Source of the DNA: an uncultured Actinomycetes bacterium
GTDB taxonomy: Bacteria; Actinomycetota; Thermoleophilia; Gaiellales; JAICJC01
NCBI GenBank assembly: GCA_963723785.1
Contig: CAVRSB010000020.1
Span: 25,543-89,542, forward strand
Direction: 5' to 3'
DNA: 64,000 nt
Part shown: one piece after another, positions 21,348 to 50,670 of the stretch
How positions within the stretch are numbered: position 1 is the first letter of the stretch
Layout: every line of letters starts with the position of its first letter
Notes under the pieces: model-generated
Databases searched by the model: none
The model's input: the letters and a program-made list of their open reading frames with translations, nothing else
Told to the model about the DNA's origin: nothing
Position numbers and translations under genes: made by a program

Positions 21348-23264
21348 ATGCAAGTGACGCTTCCCGACGGCACCGCGATCGAGCTGATCGACGGCGCCAA
21401 TGGTCTCGACGCCGCCCAGGCGATCGGGCCTCGATTGGCCCAAGCGGCGGTCGCCGTCGAGGTCGGAGGCGAGCTGCGTGATCTCCGTTTGCCGCTGGCC
21501 GACGGCGACAGCGTGCGCGTCCTGACCGCGCGTGACCCCGAGGCCCTGGCGGTGCTGCGCCATTCCACCGCTCACGTGATGGCCGAGGCCGTGCTGCACC
21601 TGTGGCCCGACACCAAGGTCGCGATCGGGCCTGCGATCGACGACGGCTTCTACTACGACTTCGAGTTCCCCGAGCCGGTATCGGCCGACGATCTCGACCG
21701 GATCGACGCCGAGATGCGCCGCATCCTCAAGACCGAGCACCCGTTCGTGCGCACCGACGGCGTCGACAAGCACGAACTCGAACGACGCTTCGCCGACGAG
21801 CATCAGCCGTACAAGCTGGAGCTGGTCGAGGCGCTGCCGGAGGGGGACATCAGCCTCTACACCCAGGACGGGTTCGAGGATCTCTGCCGGGGACCGCACC
21901 TGCAGACCACCAAGCCGATCAAGGCCTTCAAGCTCCAATCACTCGCCGGCGCATACTGGCGAGGCGACTCGGACAAGCCGATGCTGACCCGCATCTACGG
22001 CACCGCCTTCTTCGACCAGGCGGGCCTGGACGAGTACCTGCACCGGCTGGAGGAGGCCCAGAAGCGAGACCACCGCCGGCATCGGCCGTGAGCTCGACCT
22101 GTTCCATTTCGAGGACGTCTCGCCGGGCTCGCCCTTCTGGCACCCGCAAGGGCATGGTCATCTGGAACGAGCTGACCGAGCTGTGGCGCACGCTCAACCT
22201 CGAGCGTGGCTACCAGGAGGTGCGCACTCCGATCATCTTCAACGTCGACGTGTGGAAGAAATCGGGGCATTGGGAGGCGTATCGCGAAAATATGTACTTC
22301 ACCGAGGTCGAGAACGGCGAGTTCGGGCTGAAGCCGATGAACTGCCCCGGCCACATTTTCATCTTCGACGACGCCCTGCGGAGCTACCGCGACCTGCCCA
22401 TGCGCCTGTCGGAGCAGGGCCTGGTGCACCGGCACGAGCCCTCCGGGACGCTGCACGGGCTGACGCGGGTGCGCCACATCACCCAGGACGACGCGCACAT
22501 CTTCTGCAGCCACGAGCAGATCGAGGACGAGGTGATCGGGTGCCTCGAGCTGGCCGGCGTGATCTACGACACCTTCGGCTTGGAGATGCGGTTGGAGCTG
22601 TCCACCCGTCCGGCCAAGCGGATCGGCTCAGACGAGCTGTGGGATGCCGCCGAGGACGCGCTGCGGCGGGCGCTGGAACGCGCCGGGGTGGAGTATGAGC
22701 TGAACGAGGGCGACGGCGCGTTCTACGGCCCCAAGATCGATCTGCACATGTCCGACTCGATCGGACGGTCGTGGCAGATGGGCACGATCCAGCTGGACTT
22801 CCAGATGCCCGAGCGATTCGAGATCTCCTACATCGGCAGCGACAACAGCGAACATCGCCCGGCGATGATCCACCGCGCGCTGTTCGGCTCGTTCGAGCGG
22901 TTCATCGCCATCCTGATCGAGCACTACGCCGGCGCCTTCCCGCTGTGGCTGGCGCCGGTGCAGGTGATGGTGCTGGCGGTGGCCGACCGCCACGTCGACT
23001 ACGGCCACCACGTCGTGGAGACACTGCACCGACCGGGGCCTGCGGGCCGAGATCGACGTGCGCGGCGAATCGATGGGCCGAAAGATCGCCGACGCCGAGC
23101 ATCAGCGCATCCCCTGCATCCTGGTCGTCGGTGATCGCGAGGTCGTGGCCGAGACGGTGTCGGTACGTCGTCGCGGGGAGGGAGACCTGGGGGCGATGCC
23201 TCTCGCCGACCTGGGCGACGCGCTTTCGGCCGAGGTCGCGGCCAAGAGCGACTCTACGATCTGA
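21348..23264 (+). CDS. thrS: Threonine--tRNA ligase (3 frame changes as assembled)
   Basis: The TGS domain, the second additional domain (HSTAHVMAEAV), class II motifs (..FRLSEQGLVHRHE.. equivalent, GFYGPKIDL) and the anticodon-binding domain are present. Breaks fall at GG 22078-22079, GGG 22150-22152 and CC 23039-23040. The start is ATG 21348. Confidence 0.92.
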
Positions 23265-23998
23265 GGTCGATCTCGAATCGGGCGCGGTCGCCGCGGTAGA
23301 GGTCGACGGCGTACTCCACAGGGCGGCGATCGTCGGTGTAGGCAGTGCGGCGCACGCAGATCGCCGGCGAGCCCGGGCGGGTGCCCAGGTGGCGTGCGTC
23401 CGACGCCTCGAGCGTGGCCGGTTCGATCGTCTCGTGCGCGTGCACCGGCCGCACCCCGAAGGTCAGTCGCCATCAGGTCATACAGCGACTGCTTGGCCAT
23501 GTCGTGGCTGCCCAGACCGGGGCACACCGCGTCGGGAATGAACGACGTCTCCAAAAGCAGCGGCTCGCCGTCGCCAAACCGGACGCGGCGCAGGAGCCAC
23601 GCTCGCTGTCGGCGGCGCAGCCCCAGAGCGGTGCGCGGCTTCGGCATCGAGGTCAGCGGTCAGCTCCATATCCAGCACGCGTCCGTCCGGCTCGATCCCC
23701 TGAGCTCGCATCTGTTCGGAGAACCCGCCAGCCGCTGCAGCGTGTGGACGACACGGGGTGGCGAGACGAAGGTGCCGGAGCCCGGCCGGCGGTAAACCAG
23801 ACCCCGGCGCACCAGCAGCTCGACCGCTTGGCGGGCGGTCATCCGTGACAGTCCGAACTGGTCGGCCAGTGCTCGCTCGCTGGCCAGTCGCGAGTGGGGC
23901 GGGACTTCCCCATCGGTGATCTGCTGCGCCAGCTGATCAGCGGCGTGGCGGTAGCGCGGAACCGGGCGGGGAGCGATCCGCGTTGGTGGTGCGGCCAT
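23254..23998 (-). CDS. GntR-family transcriptional regulator, HutC/FadR-like with UTRA effector domain (about 4 frame changes as assembled)
   Basis: ATG 23998 starts the gene. The wHTH is ..LASERALADQFGLSRMTARQAVELLVRRGLVYRRPGSGTFV. The UTRA-like C-terminus (..GEPLLLETSFIPDAV.., ..RPVEYAVDLYRGDRARFEIDL) lies in other frames. It is divergent from the operon starting at 24056. Confidence 0.8.
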
Positions 23999-24055
23999 CG
24001 TGCAGCCATCTATACCACTTGTCAGGGTGCGAGACGTGCGCGTATCGTTTCGGGA

Positions 24056-24346
24056 ATGCGGATTGCGGCGATGGTGGTGGCGGCGGCGGGCTTGGTGCTC
24101 GTGGCCCTCGCCTTGTGGATTGGCGGCCAGGCGGGCTCGGTGCGACCGACCCCGTACGCCGCCCCCGACGTGATCGGCATGCAGCTCGACCATGCCACGT
24201 CGCTGCTTCGCCGGGCAGGCGACGTCCACATCCAGGTGCAGCGTGTGAACTGGGCGCCCGCCGGGACGGTCGCCGAGATTCGCGGGGTGGGATTCGACGG
24301 CTACTACACACGCGACTCGAATCTGGTACTGCGGGTGGGCCGGTGA
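24056..24346 (+). CDS. Small membrane-anchored PASTA-like domain protein
   Basis: ATG 24056 starts the gene. One TM helix (MRIAAMVVAAAGLVLVALALWI) is followed by a PASTA-like segment (APDVIGMQLDHATSLLRRAGDVHIQVQRV..AGTVAE..). Confidence 0.55.
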   Translation: MRIAAMVVAAAGLVLVALALWIGGQAGSVRPTPYAAPDVIGMQLDHATSLLRRAGDVHIQVQRVNWAPAGTVAEIRGVGFDGYYTRDSNLVLRVGR

Positions 24347-25362
24347 CGCCTCCGGAGCCGATCCCCACAATTCGAGTGGCCGGATCACACCGCGAGGTCG
24401 GACACCAGATCGGCGCTGCTACCGCAGCGGCGGTGCGAGCCCGGGCCGGGTCGATGTCTCCTGCCCAGGTCGCCGCCGCGCGGGCCTACCGCGACGTCAC
24501 AGCCGAGGAGCTGCCGTGGATGGTCTCCGAACTGGACAGCGTTGCCGAAGGATCCGGAGCCGATCCTCTGGCGGTGTTTGCCGCGTCGATCGAGGAGCTG
24601 GAGAGCGGCGGGAGCTCGGAAGGCCGATGCAGCGATATGGTCGCCTGCGCCCCGGCCACCGCCGACGGTCACCTGTGGGTGGCCCACAACAACGACCTGG
24701 GACCGGAGGTGGAGGACGATCTGGTCGCGATCGAGTGGCACGTGCCCGGCGACCCGGTGGTGCTGACGTTCGGCATCGGTCCGTGGATCAGCGTCGGCTT
24801 CAACTCGGCCGGGCTGGCACTCACCGGCAACGAGCTTTCCCCCAACGACAACCGCATCGGGATCCCGCGGCTGCTGCAGGTACGCGACATGGTTCGCCGC
24901 CCGACCGTCACCGAAGCGGTGTCGGCCGCTCTGCACCCGCGCAGGGCGTCGTCATACAACAACCTGCTCAGCCACCGTGACGGAACGGTTGTCAACGTGG
25001 AGGGCTCGGCCACCGATGCGGAGCTGGTCACACCCGGCGAGGACGGCACACTGGCGCACACAAATCACTACGTCGCCGAGCGAATGCTGCACTTCGAGCA
25101 GGATGCGGAATCCGCAACGGGATCGGATGTGCGATATCGTCGCGCCCTCGAATGGCTCGCACCTGGAGACATCACAGCGGGCCGCCTGCGGGCGGCTCTC
25201 TCCGACCACGCCGGCGCTCCCGACGCGATCTGCCGGCACGTCGGCAGGGGCAATTCCACCAAGACGGTCTTCTGGGTGATTGCCGATGTCACCGCCGGAC
25301 GCGTGACCTACGGGCGCGGCAATCCGTGCGACTCGCGAGAGCAGGTGTATGAGTTCGGCTGA
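24343..25362 (+). CDS. C45-family peptidase / acyl-CoA:6-aminopenicillanic-acid acyltransferase-like Ntn hydrolase
   Basis: GTG 24343 overlaps the upstream stop. The product is an intact ~339 aa. Sequence such as ..HLWVAHNNDL.., ..GLALTGNELS.. and SSYNNLLSHRDG..VNVE..LAHTNHY is typical of the C45 family, as recalled from memory. Confidence 0.65.
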   Translation: MTPPEPIPTIRVAGSHREVGHQIGAATAAAVRARAGSMSPAQVAAARAYRDVTAEELPWMVSELDSVAEGSGADPLAVFAASIEELESGGSSEGRCSDMVACAPATADGHLWVAHNNDLGPEVEDDLVAIEWHVPGDPVVLTFGIGPWISVGFNSAGLALTGNELSPNDNRIGIPRLLQVRDMVRRPTVTEAVSAALHPRRASSYNNLLSHRDGTVVNVEGSATDAELVTPGEDGTLAHTNHYVAERMLHFEQDAESATGSDVRYRRALEWLAPGDITAGRLRAALSDHAGAPDAICRHVGRGNSTKTVFWVIADVTAGRVTYGRGNPCDSREQVYEFG

Positions 25363-26233
25363 GACCGAAGCCCCGCCCACCAGCCACCGCTACGCCCAGT
25401 TGACCTGGCCGGAGGTGGCGGACTGGGCGCGCCGCGATCCTGTGTGTTTGATCCCGGTGGCAACCCTCGAGGACCACGGCTATCACCTGCCCATCGACAC
25501 CGATGTGGTGATCGCCGAGACGCTGGCGGAGCAGTCGGTGTTGTCGCGGCGCGCTAACTCACTGCTGCTTCCCACCGTCACACACGGGTATACGCCGCAC
25601 CACATGCAGTTCCCCGGGTCGATCACGATCGACTGGAAGACCTTCGTCGACCATCTGCTCGATATCGGCCGCAGTTTGGTGCACCATGGCTTCAACCGGA
25701 TCCTGTTCGTCAACGGGCATGGCTCCAATGTCCCCCTGGTCGAGATGGCGGCGAGGCTGCTGATGGTTGAGCACCCGCACTCGATCGCTGCGGCGTTTTG
25801 GTACCTGTCGGGGCCAGAGTCGGCCAAGCTGCTGGCGGAGACGCGCGACTCGCCGGTACCGGGGGGTATCGCTCACGCCTGCGAGCTGGAAACGTCGCTC
25901 TACCTGGCGATCCACCCCGAGCTGGTACAGATGGACAAGGCGGTGCGTGAGATTCCCGACTGGGACTCCGAGCACGCCTGGATGGACTGGAACGACGGGC
26001 CGCTCTCCATCAAGGGCCCGTGGAGCGGGTGGACCGAGTCCGGTGTGATGGGCGACGCCACCGCCGGCACCCGCGAGAAGGGTGAGCTGTGGCTCGCCCA
26101 GGCGGTCAAGGAAATCGGGACATACATCGACGACATCGCCCGGCGCGCTCCGCGCCCCGGGCGCGACCATCATGACGGGGCGATGACGCGGCTCCGGCCA
26201 CAAGAGCAAACGACTGAGGGAGATCGTCAATGA
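25349..26233 (+). CDS. Creatininase-family amidohydrolase
   Basis: This is an intact 294-aa ORF. Metal-ligand motifs typical of creatinine amidohydrolase/MftE-like proteins are present: ATLEDHGYHLPIDTD, VNGHGSN and ACELETS. Confidence 0.8.
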   Translation: MSSAETEAPPTSHRYAQLTWPEVADWARRDPVCLIPVATLEDHGYHLPIDTDVVIAETLAEQSVLSRRANSLLLPTVTHGYTPHHMQFPGSITIDWKTFVDHLLDIGRSLVHHGFNRILFVNGHGSNVPLVEMAARLLMVEHPHSIAAAFWYLSGPESAKLLAETRDSPVPGGIAHACELETSLYLAIHPELVQMDKAVREIPDWDSEHAWMDWNDGPLSIKGPWSGWTESGVMGDATAGTREKGELWLAQAVKEIGTYIDDIARRAPRPGRDHHDGAMTRLRPQEQTTEGDRQ

Positions 26234-27910
26234 GGATGCGAATGCTGCTACCTACCGTGGTGGTTTTAGCCGCGGTGTTCGGAGTCACCGGATGTGGAGG
26301 GGGCTCCAGCGCGGACAGCGGTGGGGGAGGCAGCACGACCGGCGGCATCCTCAGAGTGGGCACCGTCAACACCATCGATTCGCTCAACCCGTTCACCGCG
26401 ATTGAGTCACAGTCGTACAACGCGTTCGTGATGGAGTACCCACAGCTGGTGCAGTACGGCCCCGGCCCCAAGCTCGAGGGTGACTGGGCCACGAGCTGGT
26501 CTCACTCGGCCGACGGCAAGACCTGGACGTTCAAGCTCAAGCCCGGCGGCAAGTGGTCGGACGGAAAACCGCTGACAGCCGCCGACGCAGCCTGGACCGG
26601 GAACACCATCATCAAGTATCAGGCCAGTGCGACGGCCGCACTGGCGGGCGCGCTGACGCACGTGACCAGCATGGACGCCCCCAATGCGACCACACTGAAT
26701 GTCCACTACGACGCCGCCGTGGCCAACGTGCTCCCGCAGCTCGAGCAGTTCTGGGTGCTGCCCGAGCACATCTGGGGTTCGCTGACCGGCAATAGCGGCA
26801 AGGATCTCAAGTCCTACCAGCCGCAGGACCACCTGCCGACCGTGGCCGGGGGCGCGTACACCATCACAAAGTACGACGCCAAGGGCACCACCGTGTTCAA
26901 GCCCAACCCGGACTTCTACGGGCCCAAGTCCAACGCCGAGGCGGTGGCGATGACCTACTACACCAACGCCACGACGATGATCGCTGACTTCACCTCGGGC
27001 AACCTCGACTTCGTCGACCAGGTGCCGTTCAACGCGGTCAGCTCGCGTCAAGGGCGACAGTCGCTTCACCGTATACAAAGATCCGTCCTCGGAGGTGACC
27101 AACATCACCTTCAACACCAACCCGGTCAAGCCCAAGAACCGCGAGCTGCTCAACCTCAAGGTGAAAGAGGCTCTCGAGTACGCCACCGACCGCCAGCAGA
27201 TCGTGGACATCGTGTTCGCGGGCTTCGCCACAGCCGTGGGCGAACAACATCTCGAGCCAGTCGACAGTGTGGCTCGATCCATCGATCCAGCCGCTGCCGT
27301 TCGACGTCGACAAGGCCAACCAGATTCTGGACTCGCTGGGGTATGCGAAGAACTCGGACGGAATCCGGGAGGTGCCGGCGACCACCGGCAAGTACGCCCA
27401 GCCCGCCCACGAGATGTCCTACGACCTGATGGTGCCGGGGACGCTCGACTTCAACGGCGATCGCCAGTTCCAGATCATCGCCAACACGTGGCTGAAGGCC
27501 GGTGTGAAGCTCCACGAGGTGGCCGGAGGCGACAGCTCTGCCGTCGTACGGGTACGAGACCGCCGGCAATTACACCAAGTTCGACCTGGCAATGTGGGAC
27601 TGGGCCGAGTACATCGATCCCGACGCTCAGATGTCGTACATGACCAAGGCGCAGTGGCTGAGCTGGAACGACACGGGCTACAACAACCCGCAGTTCGACC
27701 AGTGGTACAAGCAGCAGGCAACCCTGCTCGAACTTCAAGGATCGGCAGGCGCTGATCTTCAAGATGGAGCAGCAGATCGCCAAGGACCGGCCCTATATTC
27801 AGCTGGTCAACGAGGACCTGGTCACCGCCAGCACCAAGGGGTGGACGGGCTTTGAGCCCGACCTGAACGCGTACTGCAAGTGCTACTACACAAGCCCGCA
27901 CCAGACATGA
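26230..27910 (+). CDS. ABC transporter substrate-binding lipoprotein, peptide/nickel (family 5, DppA/OppA-like); 4 frame changes as assembled
   Basis: An ATGA overlap links it with the upstream gene. The lipobox is VFGVTGCGGGS. SBP_bac_5-like sequence runs through frames 26230, 27095, 27267 and 27592 and a final frame ending at TGA 27908-27910. Confidence 0.82.
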
Positions 27911-27923
27911 CAGATATGAGCGT

Positions 27924-28898
27924 GTGAGGAACGCCGACTACATCATCAAGCGGACGGGGTTCGCGATCGTCACGATTTTCGTGGCGCTCACGATCAACTT
28001 CCTGCTGTTCAGGGCGCTACCTGGCAGCGCAGTCTCCGGGCTGCGCTGCCAGCACTGCACCAAGCAGTTTCGCGAATCGATCGTGAAGCAGTACGGCTTG
28101 GACAAGTCCAAGTGGGATCAGTACGTGATCTATCTCGAACGGCTGGGGCACGGTGATCTCGGAACCTCGGTGATCACCAACCGGCCGGTGTGGGACGAGA
28201 TCAAGCAACCGCTGTTGAACACACTGCCCATGCTCGTGGTGGGAACGGTGATCTCGGTGGGCTTGGGGATCATCTCGGGGGTGATTGCAGCCTGGCGGCG
28301 AAGCACCTGGTTGGACGCCTCGAACCTGTGGACGGCCCTGAGCTTCTACGCCATGCCGACACAGTGGATCGGCCTGCTGGTGATCTTCTACATCGCCATC
28401 CCGCTCGGCCTGCCGGTGGCGGGAATTCAGTCGAACACGCTCGGAATCCTCGGCCCGACGTCGCTGTGGACGACGATCTCGGACAAGGGTGAGCACCTGG
28501 CGCTGCCGGCGCTCGTGCTGGGACTGGGGCTGTACGGCGAGTACGCGCTGGTCGTGCGCTCCTCGATGCTGGAGACGCTCGGCGAGGACTACATCCTGAC
28601 CGCCCGGGCGAAGGGTCTCAAGAACTCGCTGATCGTGTGGCGGCATGCCTTCCGAAACGCGATGCTGCCGCTGGTGACGCTGATCGCGCTGTCGCTGGGC
28701 TACGTGGTGGCCGGCCAGATCGTGGTCGAGTACGTCTTTTCCTACCCCGGCATCGGGCTGGCCACCGTGGATGCGATCAACGCCCACGATTATGCGGTTT
28801 TGCAGGGGATCTTCCTGCTCTTCACGATCATCGTGATCGTCGCCAACTTCATCGCCGACCTGTTGTACTTCAAGCTTGATCCACGGGTGACGGCATGA
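27924..28898 (+). CDS. ABC transporter permease (DppB/OppB-like)
   Basis: This is an intact 324-aa ORF with 6 TM helices. The EAA-like loop is ..LETLGEDYILTARAKGL.. Confidence 0.88.
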   Translation: MRNADYIIKRTGFAIVTIFVALTINFLLFRALPGSAVSGLRCQHCTKQFRESIVKQYGLDKSKWDQYVIYLERLGHGDLGTSVITNRPVWDEIKQPLLNTLPMLVVGTVISVGLGIISGVIAAWRRSTWLDASNLWTALSFYAMPTQWIGLLVIFYIAIPLGLPVAGIQSNTLGILGPTSLWTTISDKGEHLALPALVLGLGLYGEYALVVRSSMLETLGEDYILTARAKGLKNSLIVWRHAFRNAMLPLVTLIALSLGYVVAGQIVVEYVFSYPGIGLATVDAINAHDYAVLQGIFLLFTIIVIVANFIADLLYFKLDPRVTA

Positions 28899-29863
28899 GT
28901 ACCGGCGCATTTCCGATGCTGCCCGAGGAGGAGCTCGATGACATCGAGCCGACCTCATCGCAACGTTCCAACTTCTGGCGCGACGTGGTGTTCGGCAGCA
29001 AGGTGTCGATCGCGGGCATCATCATCCTGGTGTTCTTCACATTCGTTGCGATCTTCGAGCACCAGCTGGCGCCGTACAACCCGCGCGAGCAGGTTGGCCC
29101 GCCGTACGAGGCGCCCAACTCGCAGCACTGGCTGGGCACCGACGACGGCGGCAACGACATGCTGTCGCTGGTGATCTTCGGCGCCAGGGTGTCGCTGATC
29201 GTCGGGTTTGCCGGTGCCGCGGTGGCGATTCTGATCGGCGGTGCGGTGGGCATCCTCTCCGGCTACTTCGGCGGCAAGACCGACATCGTCCTGATGCGCA
29301 CTACCGACTATTTCCTGGTGATTCCCGACGTGCCGCTGATGATCGTCGCGGCCGCCGTGTTCGGTCGCAACCTGGCCAACATCGTGATCATCATCGGCGT
29401 GATCTACTGGGCGTCCACCGCCCGGTTGATCCGTGCCCAGGTGATCACTGTGAGAGAGCGGATCTACGTCAAACGTGCGCGCGCGCTGGGGTCGGGCAGT
29501 AGACGCATCATCAGTACCCACATTCTCCCCCAGGTGATGCCCCTGATCGTCGCCAACACGGTGTTGATGGTGGCGACGGCGGTGTTCGCCGAGACGTACA
29601 TCTCGTTCCTCGGGCTCGGTGATCCGTCCACGATCTCCTGGGGCAAGCTGATTCAAAACTCGCTGGAAGGGGACGCCGTCTTCCACAACGCCTGGTGGGC
29701 GATCATCCCGCCCGGCCTGTGCGTGACGGTCGTGATCCTGGCCTGCACGATGATGGGACAGGCGATGGAGGACTCGCTCAACCCGCGGCTCAAGGTCGGG
29801 CACATGTCCGTTCGCCGGTTCCGGCTGCGGCCGCTGGTGGGAAGGCCTCCGGACAGCCTATGA
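28895..29863 (+). CDS. ABC transporter permease (DppC/OppC-like)
   Basis: This is an intact 322-aa ORF whose ATGA start overlaps the upstream stop. The N-terminal OppC-type segment and an EAA loop (..ERIYVKRARALG..) are present. Confidence 0.88.
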   Translation: MSTGAFPMLPEEELDDIEPTSSQRSNFWRDVVFGSKVSIAGIIILVFFTFVAIFEHQLAPYNPREQVGPPYEAPNSQHWLGTDDGGNDMLSLVIFGARVSLIVGFAGAAVAILIGGAVGILSGYFGGKTDIVLMRTTDYFLVIPDVPLMIVAAAVFGRNLANIVIIIGVIYWASTARLIRAQVITVRERIYVKRARALGSGSRRIISTHILPQVMPLIVANTVLMVATAVFAETYISFLGLGDPSTISWGKLIQNSLEGDAVFHNAWWAIIPPGLCVTVVILACTMMGQAMEDSLNPRLKVGHMSVRRFRLRPLVGRPPDSL

Positions 29864-30842
29864 GCCAGCCGATCCTCGAAGCCCAGGACCTGCACGTGTG
29901 GTTCGACCTCGGGCACGACCGTGAGCTGCACCCCGTCCAGGGGGTCAACTTCGCCCTGGGCGAGAGCGAGCGGATGGGGCTGGTGGGCGAGTCGGGCTGC
30001 GGCAAGACCACCACCATCCTGGCGCTGATGGGCCTGCTCCCACCCAACGCCAGCATCGCCGGCAAGGTGCTGCTGGACGGCGAGGACATCATGGCAAAGG
30101 GCGAGGAGACGGTCCAGCCGCACCGCTGGCACGACATCGCGATGGTGTTCCAGGGGGCGATGAACGCCTTCAACCCGGTCAAGAAGGTCGGCCAGCAGAT
30201 CGCCGAGCCGATGCTGCTGCACGGCGTCGCCACCGGCAAGGGCGCGAAGCTGCGAGTGCGCGAGCTGCTCGAGCTGGTCGGCATCGCCGGCGACCGCGCC
30301 GACCGGTATCCGCACGAGTTCTCGGGCGGGATGCGGCAGCGCGCGGCGATCGCGATGGCGCTCTCGTGCGAGCCCCGGGTGCTGCTGGCCGACGAGCCCA
30401 CCACCGCGCTGGACGTGATGGTGCAGGCCCAGATCCTGGAGCTTCTGACGTCGCTCTCCAACGACCTCGGGCTGGCGCTGATCCTGGTCACCCACGATCT
30501 GCCCGGTGGTCGCGCAGGTGTGCCGGCGGGCGGCAGTGATGTACGCCGGCGAGATCGTCGAGGCCGGGCCGGTGTCCACGCTCTTCCACGACCCCCGGCA
30601 TCCCGTACACGCGCATGCTGTTTGCGGCCACGCCCGATCTCTACGGCGATGACCCGGTGCTCTCGATCCCGGGCGCGCCGCCGCGGCTCGACCGCGAGCT
30701 GTCCGGATGCCCATTCGCGCCGCGCTGCGACTCGGCCTTCGAGCCGTGCCGAACAGCGCATCCTCGGCAGCTCGAGATCGTCGCCGGCCATCTCGCCCAG
30801 TGCCATCTGAACGACTCGGAAGTGCGGGCGACGGTCGCGTGA
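29860..30842 (+). CDS. ABC transporter ATP-binding protein (DppD/OppD-like); 2 frame changes as assembled
   Basis: Walker A is GESGCGKTT, the signature is FSGGMRQR, and Walker B is [11 protein letters not shown]. The C-terminal oligopeptide-type extension ([20 protein letters not shown]) is reached after breaks at ~30505 and ~30605. Confidence 0.88.
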
Positions 30843-31861
30843 GCGCTGACACCGCCACGGCGGCATCACCGCTGCTCGAGGTGGACGGGCTGGTCACCCG
30901 CTACCCGGTTCCTCGCGGTCTGGTGGAGTCGGTCACAGGCCGCACCAAGGAGTGGGTGCACGCCGTCGAGGGAGTGTCGCTTCAGCGTCGGCGCCGGGCG
31001 AGATGCTGGCGCTGGTGGGCGAGTCGGGCTGCGGCAAGACCACCACCGCCCAGACGATCGTGCGGATGGTGCAGCACGACGAGGGCTCGATCCGGTTCCA
31101 GGGCAACGAGATCGCCGGCCTCGACACCTCCCACATGCGTCCGATCCGGCGTGACATCCAGATCATCTACCAGGATCCGTACGAGTCGCTCGACCCGCGC
31201 TTCCCGGTGCGCCGCACGGTCGAGGAGCCGCTGCTGATCCACGGGGTCGGGGGCTCCGGGGCCGGAGCGCAAGCAGCTGGTGACCGACGCGCTCGAGCGG
31301 GCCGGGCTGACACCTCCCGATCTGTACCTCGACCGGTTCGCGCACGAGCTGTCCGGCGGCCAGCGCCAGCGGGTTGCGATCGCCGCGGCGCTGGTGCTCG
31401 AGCCGAAGCTGCTGGTGGCCGACGAGCCGGTGTCGATGCTCGACGTGTCGGTGCGGGCCGGCATCCTGGCGCTGCTCGACTCGCTGCGCAAGGGCGGCCT
31501 GGGGATCCTGATGATCACCCACGACCTGTCCACGGCGGCCCATTTCGCCGACCGGATCGCGGTCATGTACCTCGGCCGGATCGTGGAGGAGGGGCCGGCC
31601 AAGGAGGTCGTGCGAAACCCCCAGCATCCCTACACCAAGGCGCTGATCTCGGTGGTGCCCAAGCGCGACCCGCGCGACTCCACCGTGCCCACGCTGCTCA
31701 CCGGTGAGACGCCCAACCCGGTGCACATCCCGGCCGGGCTGCCGCTTCAATCCTCGCTGTCCGGTGGTCACGGACGCTTGCCACACGATCGACCCCGAGC
31801 TGCGACCCGGCCAAGGCGGCCGAGTCGCCTCAATCATCGAGCGGCCTGCATCCTGACGTGA
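30839..31861 (+). CDS. ABC transporter ATP-binding protein (DppF/OppF-like); several frame changes as assembled
   Basis: A GTGA overlap links it with the upstream gene. Walker A is GESGCGKTT, the signature is LSGGQRQR, and Walker B is LLVADEPVSMLD. QHPYTKALI is also present. A CRFNPRCP segment is visible in an alternate frame near 31740. Confidence 0.85.
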
Positions 31862-32802
31862 CGCGCTGGCGGGACATCGGTGGGCCGGTGGGGTTGTTTC
31901 CGACCGGCGCGCGAAATGCGATCACCGACGTGGCCGGCGTGCGCGTCGGCCACGCCCAGGCCGGCTCGTGGTGAGGCCACCGGCGTGACCGTGGTCGCGC
32001 CCCCGACCGTGCCGGTGCGGGCGGGCACCTCCACCATCAACGGCGTCGGTGAGCTGACCAAGAAGCTCGAGATCGACGAGTGGGGAGTGATCGAGACGCC
32101 GGTCTACCTGTGCGGCACGCACGCCGTCGGCACGGTGTACCAGGCCGCCATCGTGGCGGCCGGTGGTGGGCCTGACAAGACCGTGATCCCGGTGGTGGGG
32201 GAGTGCGACGACAGCGATATGGGCGACGCGCTGACGGTGACCGCGGCGGATGTCCAGGCCGCGATCGCAGACCTGGGGGAGGAGGTCGCCGAGGGCACGG
32301 TCGGCTCCGGCACCGGGATGACCTGCTTCGACTTTGCCGGTGGTATCGGAACAGCCTCGCGGGTGGTCGACGGATACACCGTCGGGGTGCTGCTGATGTG
32401 CAACTTCGGCGATCGCGAGCGGCTCACCGTCGGCGGGTTGAAGTTCGATCCCGCGCCTGGGCCGCCGCCCCCGGAGGGGTCGTGCATCGCCGTCTGCGCG
32501 ACCGACGCGCCGCTGTCGTCGCTCCAGCTCAAGCGACTGTCACTGCGACCGCTGCTGGGGTTGTGCCGGGCGGGGTCGTATGCCTCGCAACGGATCGGGC
32601 GAGATCGCGCTGGCGTTCTCCGTGGCCGCGTCGCAGGACTTCGACAACGAGGAGCTGTCACCGCTGTTCGCGGCTGCCTACGAGGCGGCCGAGGAATCCG
32701 TGTACAACTGCCTGGTCGCGGCCAAGGCGGGAGTGCGCCGCGACGGCCGTCCCCACGAGGCGTTTCCCAAGCATCTGGTACGTCAAAGGAGAGCAGCGAT
32801 GA
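31858..32802 (+). CDS. DmpA/BapA-family aminopeptidase (peptidase S58/P1, Ntn-type); 3 frame changes as assembled
   Basis: The N-terminus is [21 protein letters not shown] (GTG 31858). The family core is ..[23 protein letters not shown]... The gene passes through frames 1>2>0>1. The stop TGA 32800-32802 overlaps the ATG of the next gene (ATGA). Confidence 0.8.
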
Positions 32803-33210
32803 GCGAGGGAATGGTGGTTGAACTGCGCATGCGGCTGTCGGCAGCCGACGCCCACTACGGCGGCAACCTCGTGGACGGCGCTCACGGGCTCGAGATCTTC
32901 GGAGACATCGTCACCGAGCTGGCGGTTCGCACCGACGGCGACGAGGGCCTATTCGCGGGCTACGACCGAGATCGAGTTCCTGGCGCCGATGTACGCGGGC
33001 GACTTCGTGCGGGCCAAGGGCACCATCGTCAAGATGGGCAACACCAGCCGCACGGTCGATCTGGAGCTGTGGAAGGAGATCACTGCCCGAGCGGACGTGA
33101 ACGACTCGGCCGCCGACCTGCTCGAGCCGGCTGTGCTCGTCACCCGCGCCCAGGGCACCTACGTCGTCAAGCGCGAGTATCAGCGCGGCCCCGGCGGCCG
33201 CAGTGAATAA
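32799..33210 (+). CDS. Hotdog-fold protein resembling 3-aminobutyryl-CoA / beta-alanyl-CoA ammonia-lyase family (1 frame change as assembled)
   Basis: AAGGAG lies 6 nt upstream of ATG 32799. The sequence is [62 protein letters not shown]. The family assignment comes from remembered motifs, not a search. The stop TAA 33208-33210 lies inside REP copy 3. Confidence 0.5.
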
Positions 33211-33234
33211 ACGGTGCCAGGCACCGTTATTCAC
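33203..33234. repeat. REP-like palindrome, copy 3 (opposite orientation, one extra A in the left arm)
   Basis: GTGAATAAACGGTGCC-A-GGCACCGTTATTCAC lies between the convergent genes 32799..33210 (+) and 33237..33893 (-). Confidence 0.9.
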
Positions 33235-33236
33235 CT

Positions 33237-33893
33237 CTAGGTGTGGAGTTCGACGGCGGGGAGGGATGCCGCCAAGATCTCGGCCACCTGCTCCTCGGGC
33301 ACCTCGCTGAAGTCCTCGTAGAACTCGCCCACCGCGGCAAATCTCTGGGGTGCGCGCAGCGTGATCAGCCGCTCGCACTCTCGCGCCAGCCGCTCGGCCT
33401 GCGGCCGGGGCAGCACCGGCAGGGCGATCACGATCTGGCGGGCGCCGGCGTTGCGGATGGCGGCCATGGCCGCCCGGATCGATGCGCCGGTGGCGGCACC
33501 GTCGTCGACCAGCACCGCGGTGCGGCCGATCAGCATCATCGGCAAGCCGCCGCGCAGCCGCTCGTCCATCGCCCGGGCCTCGGCGGTGGCTTTGTCGTAG
33601 GCCTCGTCCAGCTGCTCGCGGCTGAGCAGCGACGCCACCCGGCGGTTGGTGAAGCGCTCGCCCATGGGCGCGACGGCGCCCATGGCCAGCTCGGGATACC
33701 CGGGCATCGGCACCTTGCGCACGCACATGACATCCAGTGGAAGATCGAGCAACCGTGACATCTCGGCGGCGACCTCGACTCCCCCTCGCGCGAGCCCTAT
33801 GACAATTGTGTTGGATTTTCTCCGTAGTTCTGGAGCAGCTGCCGCCAGTGCCGCCCCCGACTGGGTGCGATCGCGGAACATGATCGCGATCAT
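33237..33893 (-). CDS. Phosphoribosyltransferase-family protein
   Basis: This is an intact 218-aa ORF. The PRPP-binding loop is VLVDDGAATGASIRAA. Confidence 0.75.
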   Translation of the reverse strand: MIAIMFRDRTQSGAALAAAAPELRRKSNTIVIGLARGGVEVAAEMSRLLDLPLDVMCVRKVPMPGYPELAMGAVAPMGERFTNRRVASLLSREQLDEAYDKATAEARAMDERLRGGLPMMLIGRTAVLVDDGAATGASIRAAMAAIRNAGARQIVIALPVLPRPQAERLARECERLITLRAPQRFAAVGEFYEDFSEVPEEQVAEILAASLPAVELHT

Positions 33894-33973
33894 GCCTTAC
33901 CGGGGCAGTGAGGGTCAAGTACCCAGCCAAGGTTTTACTGAAGCCGGACAATTGGATGCGATTCGAGTGGTGT

Positions 33974-33982
33974 TGCTATACT
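33974..33982 (+). promoter_or_regulatory. Candidate extended -10 promoter element (TGCTATACT) for the infC-rpmI-rplT operon
   Basis: It is the only AT-rich hexamer of this quality in the 280-bp gap upstream of infC. It would give a ~190-nt leader. There is no experimental support. Confidence 0.3.
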
Positions 33983-34172
33983 GCCCGGCGGCCAAGCAGG
34001 GGTGATTTTTGACCCCTCACCCGTCCCCGGCGTTTCGGTGTGGTGGGTTCAATCGGGAGATTGAGCTACGTGTCCACGATCGTGGGCGCGTGAAGTGGGT
34101 GCCGAGTGGCGCCCATTTTGTCGTTGACGAGAGGGGATTCCATTTGAGCATGATCGTGACTAGGCAAGCGTT

Positions 34173-34928
34173 TTGAGGCCCCGACGCCAGGTTGACCAAC
34201 GGCCGCAGGAGCCGACCACCCGCATCAACGAGGCGATCCGCGTACCGCAGGTGCGGCTCGTGGATCAGGACGGCTCACAGATCGGGATCAAACGCACCGA
34301 AGACGCTCTCAAGTATGCGTGGGACAAGAACCTCGACCTGGTCGAGGTCGCCGCGGAGGCGCGCCCGCCCGTCTGCCGGGTAATGGATTACTCCAAATAC
34401 CGGTACGAGCAGGAGCAGAAGGCCAAGCTCGCACGCAAGCATCAGTCAACGATCACGATCAAAGAGATCAAGTTCCGTCCCAAGATCGGCGTCGCCGACT
34501 ACGAGACCAAGAAGGGCCACGTCCGCCGGTTTCTCCAAAACCGGGACAAGGTCAAAGTGACCATCATGTTCCGCGGCCGGGAGATGACACACCCCGAACG
34601 CGGACGCACGTTGCTTCTCAGGCTCGCCGAAGACGTCAAGGACATTGCGGTGATCGAATCGTCGCCGCTGCAGGACGGTCGGAACATGGTCATGCTGCTG
34701 GGCCCGTCGAAGGCGGTGCTGGCACCGACGGCCGCCGAGACAGAGGCGGCCGACGCGGCTGCTGCGGCCACCGCGGCTGACGCGGCCAGTGCAGCTGAGG
34801 TTGACGAGGCCACGACCGCTGAGGCGGCCACCGGCGACAGCGACGCAGCTGCCGACACCGAAGCCCAGCCGGCCGACCCGCCCGCGAGCGAGGAACCGGA
34901 ACCGGCACCGAGTACCGAAGCAACATAA
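34173..34928 (+). CDS. infC: Translation initiation factor IF-3 with ~70-aa Ala/Asp/Glu-rich C-terminal tail; start codon ambiguous
   Basis: The IF-3 N and C domains are recognisable ([22 protein letters not shown].., ..[23 protein letters not shown]). The frame opens directly after a stop at 34170-34172. Candidate starts are TTG 34173 or an internal non-canonical codon. Confidence 0.88.
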
Positions 34929-38041: not shown

Positions 38042-40396
38042 AGGTGCCCGTCTCCTGGCTGCGCGACTTCGTGCAGTTCGACCTGCCCGTGCCGGAGCTG
38101 GCCGAGCTGATGTCGATGACCGGCACCAAGGTCGAGGCGGTGCATCGTCGCGGCGTGCCTGAGGGCCTCGAGTTCTACCGCGTGGGCAAGGTGCTGACCC
38201 GTGATCGCCACCCCGACGCCGATCGGCTGTCGCTGTGCACGGTGGACGTGGGCGAGTCCGATCCTCGCCAGATCGTGTGTGGTGCGACCAACTTCACTGC
38301 CGGTGACACCGTTGCGGTCGCGCTGCCGGGGGCGGTGCTGCCGGACGGCACGGTGCTGCGCAAGGCCAAACTGCGCGGGCAGGTGTCCGACGGGATGATG
38401 CTGTCGGAGCGCGAGCTGGAGCTCTCCAACGAGCACGACGGCATCATGCGGCTGCCCGCCGACTGGGCGGTCGGCGACCCGCTGGTCGAGCATCTGGCGA
38501 TCACCGACGATGTGATCGAGTTCGAGATCACCTCGAACCGCCCCGACTGTCAGAACGTGTACGGGATCGCCCGCGAGGTCTCGGCCGTGCTCGACACCGA
38601 CCTGGCGCCGTGGCCCGGCAACGATCCCACGCCCGACCGGGACAGGCTCGATCGAGGACTACGTGACCGCCCGCGTGGATGCTCCCGACCTGTGTCCGCG
38701 CTGGGCCGCTCGGTTGTTCACCGACGTCAAAGTGGGCCCTTCGCCGGAGTGGCTCAAGGCCCGCATCACGGCCGCCGGGATGCGGCCGATCTCAAACGTG
38801 GTGGACATCACCAACTACGTGATGCTGTGCGTGGGCGAGCCGACCCACGCGTTCGATCTGGAGAAGGTGACCGGCCGGGAGATCATCGTGCGACGGGCCA
38901 CCGACGGCGAGCCGGTCACGACTCTGGACGGCCAGAACCGTACGCTGGATACCGATGTGCTCGTGATCGGCGATGCCGAGAAGCCGTCGGCGATCGGCGG
39001 GCTGATGGGCTCGGAGTGGAGTGAGGTGACCGATCAGACCACCACCGTCCTGATGGAGTGCGCCAACTTCGACGGGTACTCGATTCAGTCGTCTTCAGTG
39101 CGGCTGGGTCTTCGCACCGAGGGCTCCAGCCGATGGGAGAAGGGACTTGACCCGCACCTGCCGCCGCGGGCGCTGGCGCTGGCCTCCCAGCTGATGGTGG
39201 AGCTGGCCGGTGCCACCCTGGTGCCGGGCACGATCGACATTCACGGCGAGCTGCCACAGCCGCCGGTGCTGCCGCTGCGGCCCGAACGGCTGGAGCAGGT
39301 GATCGGTGTGAGCTACACCGATGCGCAGATCGACCGGGTGCTGACGCGGCTGGGCTACACGGCCGTCGAGGGCGGCTGGCAGGTGCCCACCTGGCGTGCG
39401 GCGGACACCACCCGGGAGATCGATCTGGTGGAGGAGGTGGCGCGCGTGGTGGGGCTGGAATCTGTCCCCAGCGCACTGCCGCCACATGCCGACGCGATCG
39501 GCCGCTGGGGATCGGACGAGCAGTTCCGCCGGCGGCTGGTGGAGGTGCTCGGCGGAGCGGGCCTGTCGGAGTCGGTGACGGTCGCGTTCTGGGACGACGG
39601 CATGCCCGAGCGGCTGCGCCTGCCCGAGGATCATCCCGCGCGGCGGGCAGTGCGCGTGGTCAACCCGATGAGCGCCGACCAGACGCATCTGCGCACGCTC
39701 GTGTTCCCCGGCCTTTTGCTCGCGTCGCTGGCACGAAACCTGAGTGTGGGCGCGGAGGTCGTGGAGCTGTTCGAGCTGGCTCGGGTGGCGCTGCCGGCCG
39801 ACGCTCCGATTCCCGATCAGCCGCAGCGGATCGCTGGGGTCATGACCGGGCCCGGCACCGGCTTTGCCGAGCTGAAGGGCGTGGTCGAGACGCTCTACAC
39901 CGCGCTTCACCTCGACCTTGACGTGGCCCGGTCAACCCAACCGTTCCTGCACCCTGGAAGGTCGGCCGAGACGGCGGCGGGCTTCCTGGGTGAGCTGCAC
40001 CCGCTGGTGGCCGAGGGCTTCGGCATCGAGGTGCCGGTGATGGTCTTCGAGCTGGATGTCCGAACGCTGGCGGAAGCCCGTCCCGCGTTGGTCATGCACC
40101 GCGACGTGACCAGCTTCCCGGCTCTGCGCCAGGACATCGCCGTGGTGGTCTCGGACGAGGTCGCCGCCGGGGCCGTGGTCGCTGCGGCTCGCGCCGCCGG
40201 GGGGCCACTACTTTCGCGGGTGGAGGTATTCGACGTCTACCGCGGCGACCAGGTGGGCGCGGGCAAGGTCAGCCTGGCGCTGCATCTCGTGTTCCAGGCG
40301 CCCGATCGCACGCTCACCGACGCCGAGGCAGATCAGGCCCGCGCCGACATCGTGGCGAACCTCAAAGCGACGTTCGGAGCCGAGCTACGCGGGTGA
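38038..40396 (+). CDS. pheT: Phenylalanine--tRNA ligase beta subunit (1 frame change as assembled)
   Basis: An ATGA overlap links it with pheS. The tRNA-binding OB domain (MKVPVSWLRDF..), B3/4, B5 and FDX-ACB domains are present. The break is at ~38640. The stop TGA 40394-40396 lies inside REP copy 4. Confidence 0.92.
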
Positions 40397-43834: not shown

Positions 43835-45038
43835 ATGGACCCGGGCACACTTGATCGGCTGGCCGAGTTGGCGGTCAACTTCGGCGCGTGCGTTCAGCCG
43901 AACCAGCATGTGGTGATCCAGTCAGAGGTGGGGGAAGGAGCTGCTGACGCGCGCGGTTGCCGAGCACGCCTACCGCGCCGGGGCGCTGCATGTCAGCGTC
44001 GAGTACGGCGATTCCTGGATCAAGCGCGCTCGCATCGAGCACGGCATCGACGCCGCGCTCGGCTACGGCCCTGACTGGGTGCGTTCCCGAGTGCGTGAGC
44101 TGGGCGATTCGCACGGTGCCGCCATCGCCCTGGTGGGACCGGCCGAACCGGGCGTACTGGCAGGGCTCGACAGCGACCGGCTCGCCCGCGACCGCCCTCC
44201 GGCGGCCAAGGAGGGGATTCGCAATCTGACCGAGTCGCTCACCAACTGGACGGTCGTGCCGTGCCCGACATCAGGGTGGGCGGCGCAGGTCTACCCGGAC
44301 AGCGACCCCGAGGCAGCGCTGGACAAGCTGTGGGAGCAGGTGGCGCACATCTGCCGCCTGGACACCGAGGATCCGGTTGCGGCCTGGAGCTCGCGGTTCG
44401 TGGATCTGGCCAGGGTCAAGGATGCGCTCACAGCCCGCCGGTTCGACGCCCTCCACCTGCAGGCGCCGGGCACCGACCTGACGATCGGCCTTTTGCCCAC
44501 GAGCTCGTGGTGCACTGGGTCGCTGACGACGTCGTGGGGACTGGAACACCACCCCAACATCCCGTCCGAAGAGGTGTTCACGACACCCGACCCGGTGCGG
44601 GTCGACGGCGTCGTGCGCTCAACCAAGCCGCTGGAGCGCGAAGGGCAGATGATTCTCGGCCTGGAGGTCGAGTTCGCCGAGGGCAGGGTGGTGCGCATCG
44701 ACGCTGATCAGGGAGCCGACGTGATGCGCGGATACTGCGGCCGGGACGAGGGAGCCGCCCGCTTGGGTGAGGTCGCGCTGGTGGACGGCAGCGGCCGCAT
44801 CGGCCCGCTCGAGACGGTGTTTTGGACGACGCTGATCGACGAGAACGCCGCCAGCCACATCGCGCTCGGGCAGGGCTTCGACTGGGCTGTGGGTGAGGCC
44901 GACCGCGACCGCATCAACCGCAGCGAGCTGCACATCGACTTCATGATCGGCTCATCCGAGATGGTCGTGACGGGCATCACCGGTGACGGCACACGCGTGC
45001 CGGTGCTCGAGCGCGGCGCCTGGCAGATCGAAAGCTAA
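43835..45038 (+). CDS. Aminopeptidase, M29 family (AmpS/PepS-like); 1 frame change as assembled
   Basis: MDPGTLDRLAELAVNFGACVQPNQHVVIQSEVG is followed, after a break at the G-run 43931-43934, by KELLTRAVAEHAYRAGALHVSVEY... Further on come ..NIPSEEVFTTP.. and ..HIALGQGF..HIDFMIG. Confidence 0.82.
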
Positions 45039-46797: not shown

Positions 46798-46808
46798 CAA
46801 CTCTCCCC

Positions 46809-47807
46809 TTATGTGATTCCGCATTCGCGCAAGCAGATTCCGCGCTGCGGCTTCGATCTTGGACTCCAGCGGCAGTGCTGCCCGCTCCAACGGTTTGGCG
46901 TACGGCATCGGAACCTCGGCCGATCCCACTCGTTCGACCGGCGCGTCGAGGTCATCGAAGCACACGCGGGAGATTCGGGCGGCCAGTTCGGCGCCGACTC
47001 CGTAGGTCGACCAGCCCTCTTCGGCGATCAGCGCGCGGTTGGTCTTGCGCACCGACTCGGCCACGGTGTCCACGTCCAGCGGCCGCAGCGAGCGCAGGTC
47101 GACGACCTCGACCGCGAGGCCGTCCTGGGCCAGCCGGTCGGCGACGCGCAGCGCGCGCTGGACGGTGTAGGAGTGGGCCACGATGGTCAGATCAGTGCCT
47201 TCGCGGGCGATCTGCGGCCTGGCCGAACGGGACCGTGAACTCGCGGATCATCGGGAATCGTGCCGTTGACGTTGTACAGCACCAGGTTCTCGCAGAACAG
47301 CACCGGGTCGTCGTCGCGGATTGCCGTCTTCAGCATCCCGTTGGCGTCGGCGGGCGTTGGCGGGCGCGACGACCTTGAGGCCGGGGCAGCCGGCGAACCA
47401 GGCCTCGAGGCTCTGCGAGTGCTGGGCGGTGAGCTGGGCGCCGGCGCCGCCGGGCGTGCGGATCACCAGCGGCACGCCGACGGTGCCGCCGAACATGTAC
47501 CGGATCTTGGCGGCGTGGTTGACGACCTGGTCCATCGCGACCAGGATGAAGTTGATCGTCATGATCTCGATCACCGGCCGCAGGCCCAGCATGGCCGCGC
47601 CGATGCCGGCGCCGACGAAGCCCTCCTCGGAGATCGGCGTCTCGCGCACGCGCTGGGGGCCGTACTTCTGCCACAGGCCGGCGGTGACCTTGTAGGAGCC
47701 CTCGAACCGGCCGATCTCCTCGCCCATCAGCAGCACCGACTCGGTCGCGGCGCGAGCTCGTCGTCGAGTGCTCGCCGCAGCGCCTCGCGGTAGGTCAGGT
47801 CGGCCAT
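46809..47807 (-). CDS. 2-oxoacid dehydrogenase E1 beta subunit (multiple frame changes as assembled)
   Basis: The N-terminus is [18 protein letters not shown].. Later segments are ..[54 protein letters not shown].. and a C-terminal ..[15 protein letters not shown]... The likely stop TAA 46809-46811 is followed by GGGGAGAG and the E2 ATG. As assembled, E1 beta reads through in frame into E2. Confidence 0.85.
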
Positions 47808-48896: not shown

Positions 48897-48917
48897 CGTC
48901 GGGTAGGCTCTTGATCG

Positions 48918-49173: not shown

Positions 49174-50670
<1,497 letters not shown>

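Follow-up and report, generated by a model that had tools for sequence, protein, structure and literature searches.

A GntR-associated catabolic operon of soil Gaiellales joining a peptide-type importer, three amidohydrolases and a Kal-family lyase, and its possible link to beta-lysine

Organization of the locus and its gene products

A catabolic gene run was analyzed in a stretch of 64,000 nucleotides (nt) of DNA (contig CAVRSB010000020.1 of assembly GCA_963723785.1, positions 25,543-89,542 of the forward strand; G+C content 68%), which is referred to as the window and on which all coordinates are based. Genes were called from codon-position G+C, a frame-tracking model and six-frame open reading frames (ORFs). 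A single run of genes on the plus strand (24056-33210) is opposed by a regulator gene on the minus strand (23254-23998) and encodes, in this order, a 96-amino-acid (aa) protein, a C45-family hydrolase, a creatininase-family amidohydrolase, a solute-binding protein (SBP), two permeases, two ATPases, an S58-family aminopeptidase and the hotdog protein Kal (Table 1). Start and stop codons overlap (ATGA, GTGA or longer) at seven of the nine junctions as assembled, and an eighth overlap, an ATGA at the S58/kal junction, appears when a probable 1-nt error is removed. The gene order and strand given in a first-pass annotation made from the sequence alone were correct, as was its statement that most junctions carry ATGA or GTGA overlaps, and its family calls (HutC-type GntR, C45, creatininase, Dpp-type importer, S58 and hotdog) were confirmed by profile searches against Pfam and NCBIfam. 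The data support one GntR-associated catabolic operon that joins a Dpp/Opp-type importer and three different amidohydrolases to a lyase of the Kal/Acl family, for which a beta-amino-acid substrate is the most coherent reading.

Table 1. Features of the operon region in window coordinates.
Feature	Position	Strand	Remarks
HutC-type GntR regulator	23254..23998	-	divergent from operon; insertions at 23465, 23637; deletion at 23724
Putative operon promoter region	24008..24058	+	TTGTCA (24019-24024), 18-nt spacer, TATCGT (24043-24048)
Small 96-aa protein with N-terminal membrane anchor	24056..24346	+	intact ORF
C45 Ntn-hydrolase/acyltransferase (AAT family)	24343..25362	+	GTGA overlap with preceding gene
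Creatininase-family amidohydrolase	25349..26233	+	PF02633, 218.7 bits
Family-5 solute-binding lipoprotein (SBP)	26230..27910	+	1-nt insertions at 27046, 27232, 27543, 27730
ABC permease 1 (DppB/OppB type)	27924..28898	+	PF00528 and PF19300
ABC permease 2 (DppC/OppC type)	28895..29863	+	PF00528 and PF12911; ATGA overlap with permease 1
ABC ATPase 1 (DppD/OppD type)	29860..30842	+	PF00005 and PF08352; insertions at 30501, 30605
ABC ATPase 2 (DppF/OppF type)	30839..31861	+	PF00005 and PF08352; insertions at 30980, 30996, 31267, 31736, 31808, 31830
S58 (DmpA/BapA-family) self-processing aminopeptidase	31858..32802	+	GTGA overlap with ATPase 2; insertions at 31969, 32587
kal, putative hotdog 3-aminobutyryl-CoA (beta-aminoacyl-CoA) ammonia-lyase	32799..33210	+	last operon gene; 1-nt insertion at 32969

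The last gene of the operon, kal, is convergent with a phosphoribosyltransferase gene (33237-33893, minus strand). Its product matches the 4HBT hotdog family of Pfam and, after repair of the reading frame, obtained a borderline score of 160.2 bits on NF052388 (Lys_ferment_KAL; cutoff 160), on which the orthologs of the relatives L001 and L003 obtained 158 and 164 bits. The Kal/Acl hotdog beta-aminoacyl-CoA ammonia-lyases bear the EC numbers 4.3.1.14 and 4.3.1.6. A full-length match to beta-alanyl-CoA:ammonia lyase 2 (PDB 4mtu; E = 4.1e-28, query 9-132 versus chain 8-133), including the DAHY-GNLV-GA motif, bears out the resemblance to 3-aminobutyryl-CoA and beta-alanyl-CoA lyases noted in the first pass. 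The window protein is 98% identical to the intact protein P0001 and 54-60% identical to Kal of classical lysine-fermentation clusters. More than 6000 homologs were found, the closest 120 of which (at least 77% identity) come from soil metagenomes and from metagenome-assembled genomes (MAGs) labelled Gaiellales or Thermoleophilia. An inverted repeat, ACGGTGCC-A-GGCACCGT, immediately follows the stop codon of kal (33211-33227), ahead of the convergent gene, and may act as a bidirectional terminator; it has no T-run and was not flagged by a terminator scan.

The S58 protein (MEROPS P1) covers positions 1-305 of the 307 positions of PF03576 (262 bits, cutoff 23.9) and matches PDB entries 2drh (2e-47), BapA (3n2w, 1e-35) and DmpA (1b65, 2e-33). 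In alignments, its Gly-Ser self-processing site (EGS) lines up with KGS-IIMIIATDAPL of 2drh and the corresponding site of BapA. Enzymes of this family remove N-terminal beta-amino acids and cleave beta-Ala-Xaa (PMC9235088). The C45 protein scored 58.2 bits on PF03417 (cutoff 23.2) and 166.6 bits on NF040521 (C45_proenzyme; cutoff 85), and the Cys in its EGRCSD motif aligns with the nucleophile Cys in DGCTTAY of isopenicillin-N acyltransferase 2x1d. The creatininase-family protein matches PDB 1q3k (E = 5e-21), with NGHGSN aligned to NGHYEN of creatininase. It stays below both equivalog cutoffs (TIGR04448, 112 versus 235 bits; MftE, TIGR03964, 116 versus 172 bits), and identity as a true creatininase or MftE was therefore rejected in favor of broad PF02633 membership. 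The ATP-binding cassette (ABC) importer of the Dpp/Opp type (PepT family) is complete, with all five components in canonical order. The stitched SBP scored 189 bits on PF00496 (SBP_bac_5), and its repaired ORF is free of stops and 98% identical to that of L001. No equivalog model reached its cutoff for this binding protein, the best being NikA with 121 versus 393 bits.

The helix-turn-helix (HTH) and UTRA parts of the GntR regulator lie on two ORF pieces as assembled. The intact 247-aa ortholog in L001 carries both domains (PF00392, 66 bits; PF07702, 129 bits), in agreement with the divergent HutC-type GntR of the first pass, and the repaired window gene has no stop codon and 97.6% identity to L001. 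TTGTCA-18-TATCGT is the sole promoter-like site on the plus strand in a scan of 23000-34200. It ends 7 nt upstream of the first ATG (24056), so that the operon mRNA is probably leaderless or near-leaderless. The sequence between the GntR gene and the operon is 92% conserved across four relatives, and a conserved ATCTATACCACTTGTCAG stretch that overlaps the -35 hexamer is a candidate GntR operator; the operon is probably under GntR control.

The gene of the 96-aa protein is confined, among the surveyed loci, to the closest relatives L001, L010 and L091, and its ratio of nonsynonymous to synonymous substitution rates (dN/dS) is 0.18. The first pass had called its product PASTA-like. No match to any Pfam or NCBIfam model, PASTA included, was obtained for the window protein; an ortholog reached PASTA (PF03793) with E = 0.046 and 14.1 bits (cutoff 23.2) over 21 residues, and the AlphaFold model was poor (pLDDT 63.5, pTM 0.28). 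With a sub-cutoff ortholog score and such a model, the PASTA identity is not supported.

The remainder of the window holds housekeeping genes. Downstream of pheST and copCD lie an M29 aminopeptidase gene (43917-45038), with two M29 genes equivalently placed in L005, and a 2-oxoacid dehydrogenase complex whose E1, E2 and E3 genes are in pieces owing to frameshifts (46204-50424).

Frameshifts in the assembled sequence

The first-pass annotation mentioned no frameshifts, whereas six of the 11 genes are interrupted as assembled. Insertions and deletions were mapped against the relative L001, which is 93% identical to the window and has intact copies of all genes. Over 20 kb (23026-43272) the window contains 27 single-base insertions and one 2-nt non-triplet insertion. 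Seventeen single-base insertions fall in the operon region (two in GntR, four in SBP, two in ATPase 1, six in ATPase 2, two in S58 and one in kal), together with one single-base deletion in GntR; others lie in thrS (23026), in pheT (38632 and 39719-39723) and near rplT (35730 and 35819). When the inserted bases were removed, all ORFs were restored with no internal stop and with 95-98.5% amino-acid identity to L001. The inserted base is G or C in 22 of 27 cases and adjoins an identical base in six of 27, and single-base deletions are rare (four), a pattern that is not the classic homopolymer error. Similar fragmentation was seen in the sister assemblies L002, L006, L026 and L027, which derive from long-read data of the same kind. 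Since essential genes are hit as well and nonsense mutations are completely missing, the frameshifts are assembly errors and not decay. That the operon is a string of pseudogenes with real frameshifts is suggested by the number of interrupted genes and by the scarcity of homopolymer contexts, but it is very improbable and was rejected, as the same +1 insertions occur in thrS, pheT and the rplT region, no nonsense mutation was found, the ORFs can be restored, intact orthologs are under strong purifying selection and the sister long-read assemblies are broken up alike. Two in-frame differences from L001, a 21-nt deletion at the junction of the two permease genes (28883) and a 3-nt insertion at the start of the C45 gene (24347), look like real variation.

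In the assembled sequence the S58 frame has no stop codon and continues into kal (junction 32779-32802). L010 differs by 4 nt at this junction, and S58 ends there on an ATGA overlap, as it does in L005. The read-through is therefore probably one more inserted base, and a natural S58-Kal fusion was rejected. In L001 the spacer between S58 and kal (9827-10000) contains an extra 162-174 nt or so with terminal inverted repeats of about 17 nt (TGACCGGTAACGTTGC...GCAAACGTTGCCGGTCA), of which a partial copy is present in L020; it looks like a small insertion resembling a miniature inverted-repeat transposable element. Since the spacer has such terminal repeats and does not resemble any kam or kce gene, the idea that the 162-nt difference marks a past deletion of kam genes was rejected. 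As this case illustrates, even a frameshift-ridden assembly can be read correctly when close relatives are at hand.

Conservation of the operon and its two forms

Conservation was surveyed by contig look-ups, a scan of one genome per species and tblastn of all fetched loci. The block is syntenic in more than 25 independent Gaiellales genomes or contigs, far beyond chance, which answers the neighborhood check proposed in the first pass, and it lies between thrS and infC-rpmI-rplT in L001, L002, L003, L005-L008, L010-L027, L029, L090 and L091. With genes that occur in only some loci in brackets, the order in the clade is GntR (minus strand), (Kdd), C45, creatininase family, SBP, two permeases, two ATPases, (M19), (amidase), S58, (KamB-KamD-KamE), Kal, (amidase), (Kce), phosphoribosyltransferase (minus strand). 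A short form without the bracketed lysine-pathway genes is found in the window, in L001, L010 and L091 and in about 12 further species. A full form with kdd, kamB, kamD, kamE and kce is found in seven of 19 species representatives as well as in L002, L003 and L090; in L003, L090/L023, L011, L014, L016, L018, L022 and L029 the lysine-pathway genes, kamA excepted, are co-located. In L003, KamD (702 bits, cutoff 600), KamE (327, cutoff 280) and Kal (164, cutoff 160) score above and Kce (356, cutoff 382) and KamB (188, cutoff 210) below their cutoffs; Kdd of L090, the first gene of its operon, reached 240.7 bits (cutoff 200). The gene identities in the full form are regarded as solid. In L090, kdd thus occupies the slot that the gene of the 96-aa membrane protein has in the lineage of the window. 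In full-form operons a second regulator gene, of the PucR family, adjoins the GntR gene on the minus strand (L090, 6656-10011).

Because the sister operons hold kdd, kamB, kamD, kamE and kce, the hotdog protein is identified with the Kal enzyme that acts in the lysine/beta-lysine pathway, and beta-lysine is the beta-amino acid to which they point. No kamA was found in the operon that could be followed end to end, from thrS to infC of one contig (L090 and L023), whereas all classical clusters in the survey that have kdd also hold kamA wherever the contig extends far enough. Within the 64 kb of the window, tblastn detected no KamA, KamB, KamD, KamE, Kdd or Kce, and no homolog of an ADP-forming coenzyme A (CoA) ligase or of the acrylyl-CoA reductase AcuI was found; kal is not co-located here with kce, kdd, kamDE and kamA, as it is in lysine-fermentation clusters.

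The intact short-form loci L001 and L010 were compared. The dN/dS of kal is 0.039 and that of S58 is 0.063, with 0.02-0.15 for the other operon genes and 0.00-0.10 for housekeeping neighbors. The S58 stop codon overlaps the kal start (ATGA) in L005 and L010, and no residue in the alignment separates short-form from full-form Kal. For these reasons short-form kal is functional and under strong purifying selection and not a relic. Kal has the character of a core operon component, with the beta-lysine genes as a variable module around it, and the window holds a reduced or core version of the operon. In the S58 alignment, column 50 (window position ~32005) is Val or Ile in 12 of 12 short-form and Thr in six of seven full-form proteins (STVNG versus ATTNG); this sole near-diagnostic difference between the forms may touch substrate handling. 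A further S58 paralog, longer (374 aa) and 38% identical, is encoded in some relatives within a few kb downstream (L003, 14239-15363), between an rRNA methyltransferase gene and pheS; no such copy is present in the window.

A third context of Kal homologs was observed outside Gaiellales. In a Modestobacter locus (L060, 6777-10408) an acrylyl-CoA reductase-family gene (TIGR02823, 418 bits) and a gene for a 687-aa ADP-forming acyl-CoA ligase accompany a Kal homolog (170 bits). The same context is present in L030, L041, L055, L056, L058, L072, L084 and L085, and L074 has the ligase only. These loci look like a route from a free beta-amino acid, perhaps beta-alanine, to propionyl-CoA in aerobic Actinomycetota and Chloroflexota, and no published description of them was found. 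The nearest outgroup Kal (Ktedonobacterales, L031) has EF-G and helicase genes as neighbors and is uninformative.

Proposed substrate, alternatives and related systems

In the mechanism that we propose, the Dpp/Opp-type importer would take up a small peptide-like nitrogen compound, which three cytoplasmic amidohydrolases, the C45 Cys-Ntn hydrolase, the creatininase-family metallo-amidase and the S58 Ser-Ntn aminopeptidase, would dismantle. Kal would then take ammonia off a beta-aminoacyl-CoA (3-aminobutyryl-CoA) to give crotonyl-CoA. In the full form, Kdd, the KamB reactivase subunit, KamD/KamE (beta-lysine 5,6-aminomutase), Kce and Kal would convert beta-lysine to crotonyl-CoA, acetoacetate and two NH3. 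In the known pathway, Kce forms 3-aminobutyryl-CoA from acetyl-CoA and Kal deaminates it (PMC3149608). As the CoA thioester would likewise be made by Kce from acetyl-CoA in the full form, the missing ligase or transferase is explained there. The puzzle raised in the first pass, that the cluster has neither enzyme, thus stands for the window but is largely dissolved by its full-form relatives. As the operon has no kamA and carries an importer and amidohydrolases in its stead, beta-lysine would be the likeliest input, released from an imported beta-lysyl amide or peptide by S58, whose gene lies directly upstream of kamB in the full form. In the short form of the window, Kal would be fed by something encoded outside the locus. 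The data show the gene families, the conservation of the operon, its two forms, the purifying selection and the artefactual nature of the frameshifts; the identity of the substrate, S58 as supplier of beta-lysine, control by GntR and the source of the Kal substrate in the short form are inferences. We give the reading as a whole, one operon of soil Gaiellales type regulated by a HutC-type GntR protein, with beta-lysine freed by S58 from an imported beta-lysyl compound as likeliest input, about an even chance of being right. The first pass had proposed a substrate containing beta- or D-amino acids; the beta part finds support in the sister operons, which specify beta-lysine, while nothing points to D-amino acids, nor to the creatinine-like lactams that had been named as test substrates.

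Several observations weigh against the beta-lysine reading. The route cannot run from the window locus alone, because kdd, kamBDE, kce, kamA and a ligase are missing. Relocated copies of the pathway in short-form genomes are unlikely: about 54 Gaiellales-type KamD proteins are present in the protein database, and none lies on the large short-form contigs (216 kb, 742 kb and 2.6 Mb); kce was found only within the operon, as all 15 Gaiellales-type kce loci from metagenomes show the Kal-Kce-phosphoribosyltransferase context wherever the flank suffices, and the next-best matches drop to at most 56% identity. Short and full forms are interspersed in the operon and Kal trees, the root of which rests on error-rich sequences. 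The lysine-pathway genes would therefore have been gained or lost several times, and no gene remnants indicating the direction were found. In a neighbor-joining tree, Kal of Gaiellales forms a clade that joins the ligase-associated one and does not fall inside the classical lysine-fermentation clade, and the Modestobacter protein encoded beside acrylyl-CoA reductase scores 170 bits on NF052388; on these two grounds beta-alanyl-CoA is a possible substrate of Kal. The sequences of S58, the C45 protein, the creatininase-family enzyme and the binding protein do not reveal their substrate specificity, and the nearest S58 structure, 2drh, comes from a Pyrococcus protein that is itself uncharacterised. 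L-Lysine from ordinary peptides is likewise a possible input of the full form.

A simpler scheme, close to that of the first pass, was weighed as the first alternative. Peptides with N-terminal beta-alanine or 3-aminobutyrate (carnosine-like) would be imported, the residue freed by S58 would be activated by a CoA ligase or transferase encoded elsewhere, and Kal would eliminate ammonia; in this view the short form would be the original core and the beta-lysine genes an accessory branch joining at Kal. In line with this, S58 and kal are neighbors with coupled translation in all short-form loci, where purifying selection acts on kal. Beta-Ala-Xaa is a substrate of DmpA and BapA (PMC9235088), and a route of CoA ligase plus lyase exists for beta-valine (PMC4619459). 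The ligase-Kal-reductase trio in nine loci (the tenth, L074, with the ligase only), including Modestobacter, Blastococcus and Geodermatophilus, argues that the Kal family does work on ligase-activated free beta-amino acids, and the Gaiellales Kal clade is sister to the ligase-associated clade. The basal branches of the operon tree are also short-form, but error-rich sequences form these branches and the root is for this reason unreliable. Moreover, the window and the 10 kb around each Gaiellales locus yielded no ligase, transferase or acrylyl-CoA reductase, and identity between importer proteins of the two forms reaches 89% (L002), which argues that both forms import the same substrate. We regard this scheme as possible but doubtful.

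Alternatively, the operon might serve general oligopeptide scavenging, with L-amino acids as the released products, L-lysine entering the full-form pathway via a KamA encoded elsewhere and kal of the window a mere passenger. The ordinary peptide-degrading enzymes added in sister loci (M19 dipeptidase and amidase-signature enzymes) and the M29 aminopeptidase gene nearby in the window would fit. The three or four amidases of the operon are, however, mechanistically unusual and not standard peptidases, and kamA is missing from the full-form operon, unlike the kdd-holding classical clusters. About 15 lineages at species level, all lacking the other pathway genes, have kept kal at the same position and translationally coupled to S58, and a dN/dS of 0.04 is unlike that of a passenger. 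This explanation is unlikely.

For the Kal substrate in the short form, two candidate sources may be named: an unlinked ligase or transferase acting on an S58-freed beta-amino acid or, speculatively, acyl transfer from the S58 or C45 acyl-enzyme to CoA. The latter belongs to a bolder view, which we consider improbable, in which the operon would perform an undescribed aerobic salvage of natural beta-aminoacyl compounds (e.g. streptothricin-type beta-lysine oligomers or amides) and, in the short form, CoA would attack the S58 or C45 acyl-enzyme to yield an aminoacyl-CoA without ATP. If this were true, an S58 beta-aminopeptidase would finally gain a physiological substrate.

Among the closest known systems is the lysine fermentation cluster (kamA, kamDE, kdd, kce, kal) of Fusobacterium, Clostridium sticklandii and Porphyromonas (Kreimeyer et al., 2007, as summarised in PMC3149608). 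The last gene of the window operon belongs to the Kal family of this cluster, and sister Gaiellales operons contain orthologs of Kdd, KamD, KamE and Kce in the order KamD-KamE-Kal-Kce, which is shared with Anaeromyxobacter. In contrast to that cluster, the window has kal only, and the full Gaiellales form is devoid of kamA and of butyryl-CoA/CoA-transferase genes, has its pathway genes set among those of an ABC peptide importer and of three or four amidohydrolases, and occurs in soil MAGs and not in gut or oral anaerobes. Neither a close S58 homolog nor a linked Dpp importer was present in any classical cluster in the survey. Kal also shares the hotdog fold family and a full-length alignment with Acl2 of Clostridium propionicum (PDB 4mtu/4mzq), but Acl works with a beta-alanine CoA-transferase in anaerobic fermentation, and no such partner is present at this locus. 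In the beta-valine pathway of Pseudomonas sp. SBV1, BvaA and BvaB perform CoA activation and then ammonia elimination from the beta-aminoacyl-CoA (PMC4619459). These two steps would be common to BvaA/BvaB, the Modestobacter-type trio and the operon described here; both other systems have the ligase next to the lyase, whereas the window has none, and BvaB is a crotonase-family and Kal a hotdog protein. In sediment Thaumarchaeota, kal had already been noted as an orphan lacking the other pathway genes (PMC8397731).

The S58 enzyme shares PF03576 and the Gly-Ser self-processing site with DmpA of Ochrobactrum anthropi and BapA of Sphingosinicella, but it is shorter (~300-315 versus 373-375 aa) and its closest structure is 2drh. 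The characterisation of DmpA and BapA used the isolated enzymes and synthetic substrates; the S58 gene described here is part of a conserved catabolic operon, and this setting suggests that a natural substrate exists. The dpp operon of Bacillus subtilis, in which the D-aminopeptidase DppA and the importer DppBCDE serve nutrient scavenging, resembles the operon described here in that an importer is co-transcribed with an aminopeptidase for non-standard N-termini. DppA is, however, an M55 peptidase, and the B. subtilis operon has no C45, creatininase-family or hotdog lyase genes and no acyl-CoA link. A search of a paper library found no paper that links S58, C45 or creatininase-family genes with kal/kam or describes this operon, in accordance with the first pass, to which no characterised pathway of such a composition was known. 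The parts thus belong to known families, and the combination of importer, C45, creatininase-family, S58 and kal/kam genes is a new arrangement.

Gaiellales are abundant in soil and almost uncultured, and conserved catabolic islands such as this one are among the few clues to their diet. To our knowledge, S58 beta-aminopeptidases have been studied mainly on synthetic beta-peptides, and their natural substrates are not established; the position of S58 in the full form, immediately upstream of a complete, kamA-less beta-lysine module in an import operon, is a testable proposal for such a substrate. The short form raises the biochemical question of where a conserved Kal with no linked ligase, transferase or Kce obtains its CoA thioester. 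The full form proposes that beta-lysine would be catabolized outside the anaerobic fermenters in which the pathway is known.

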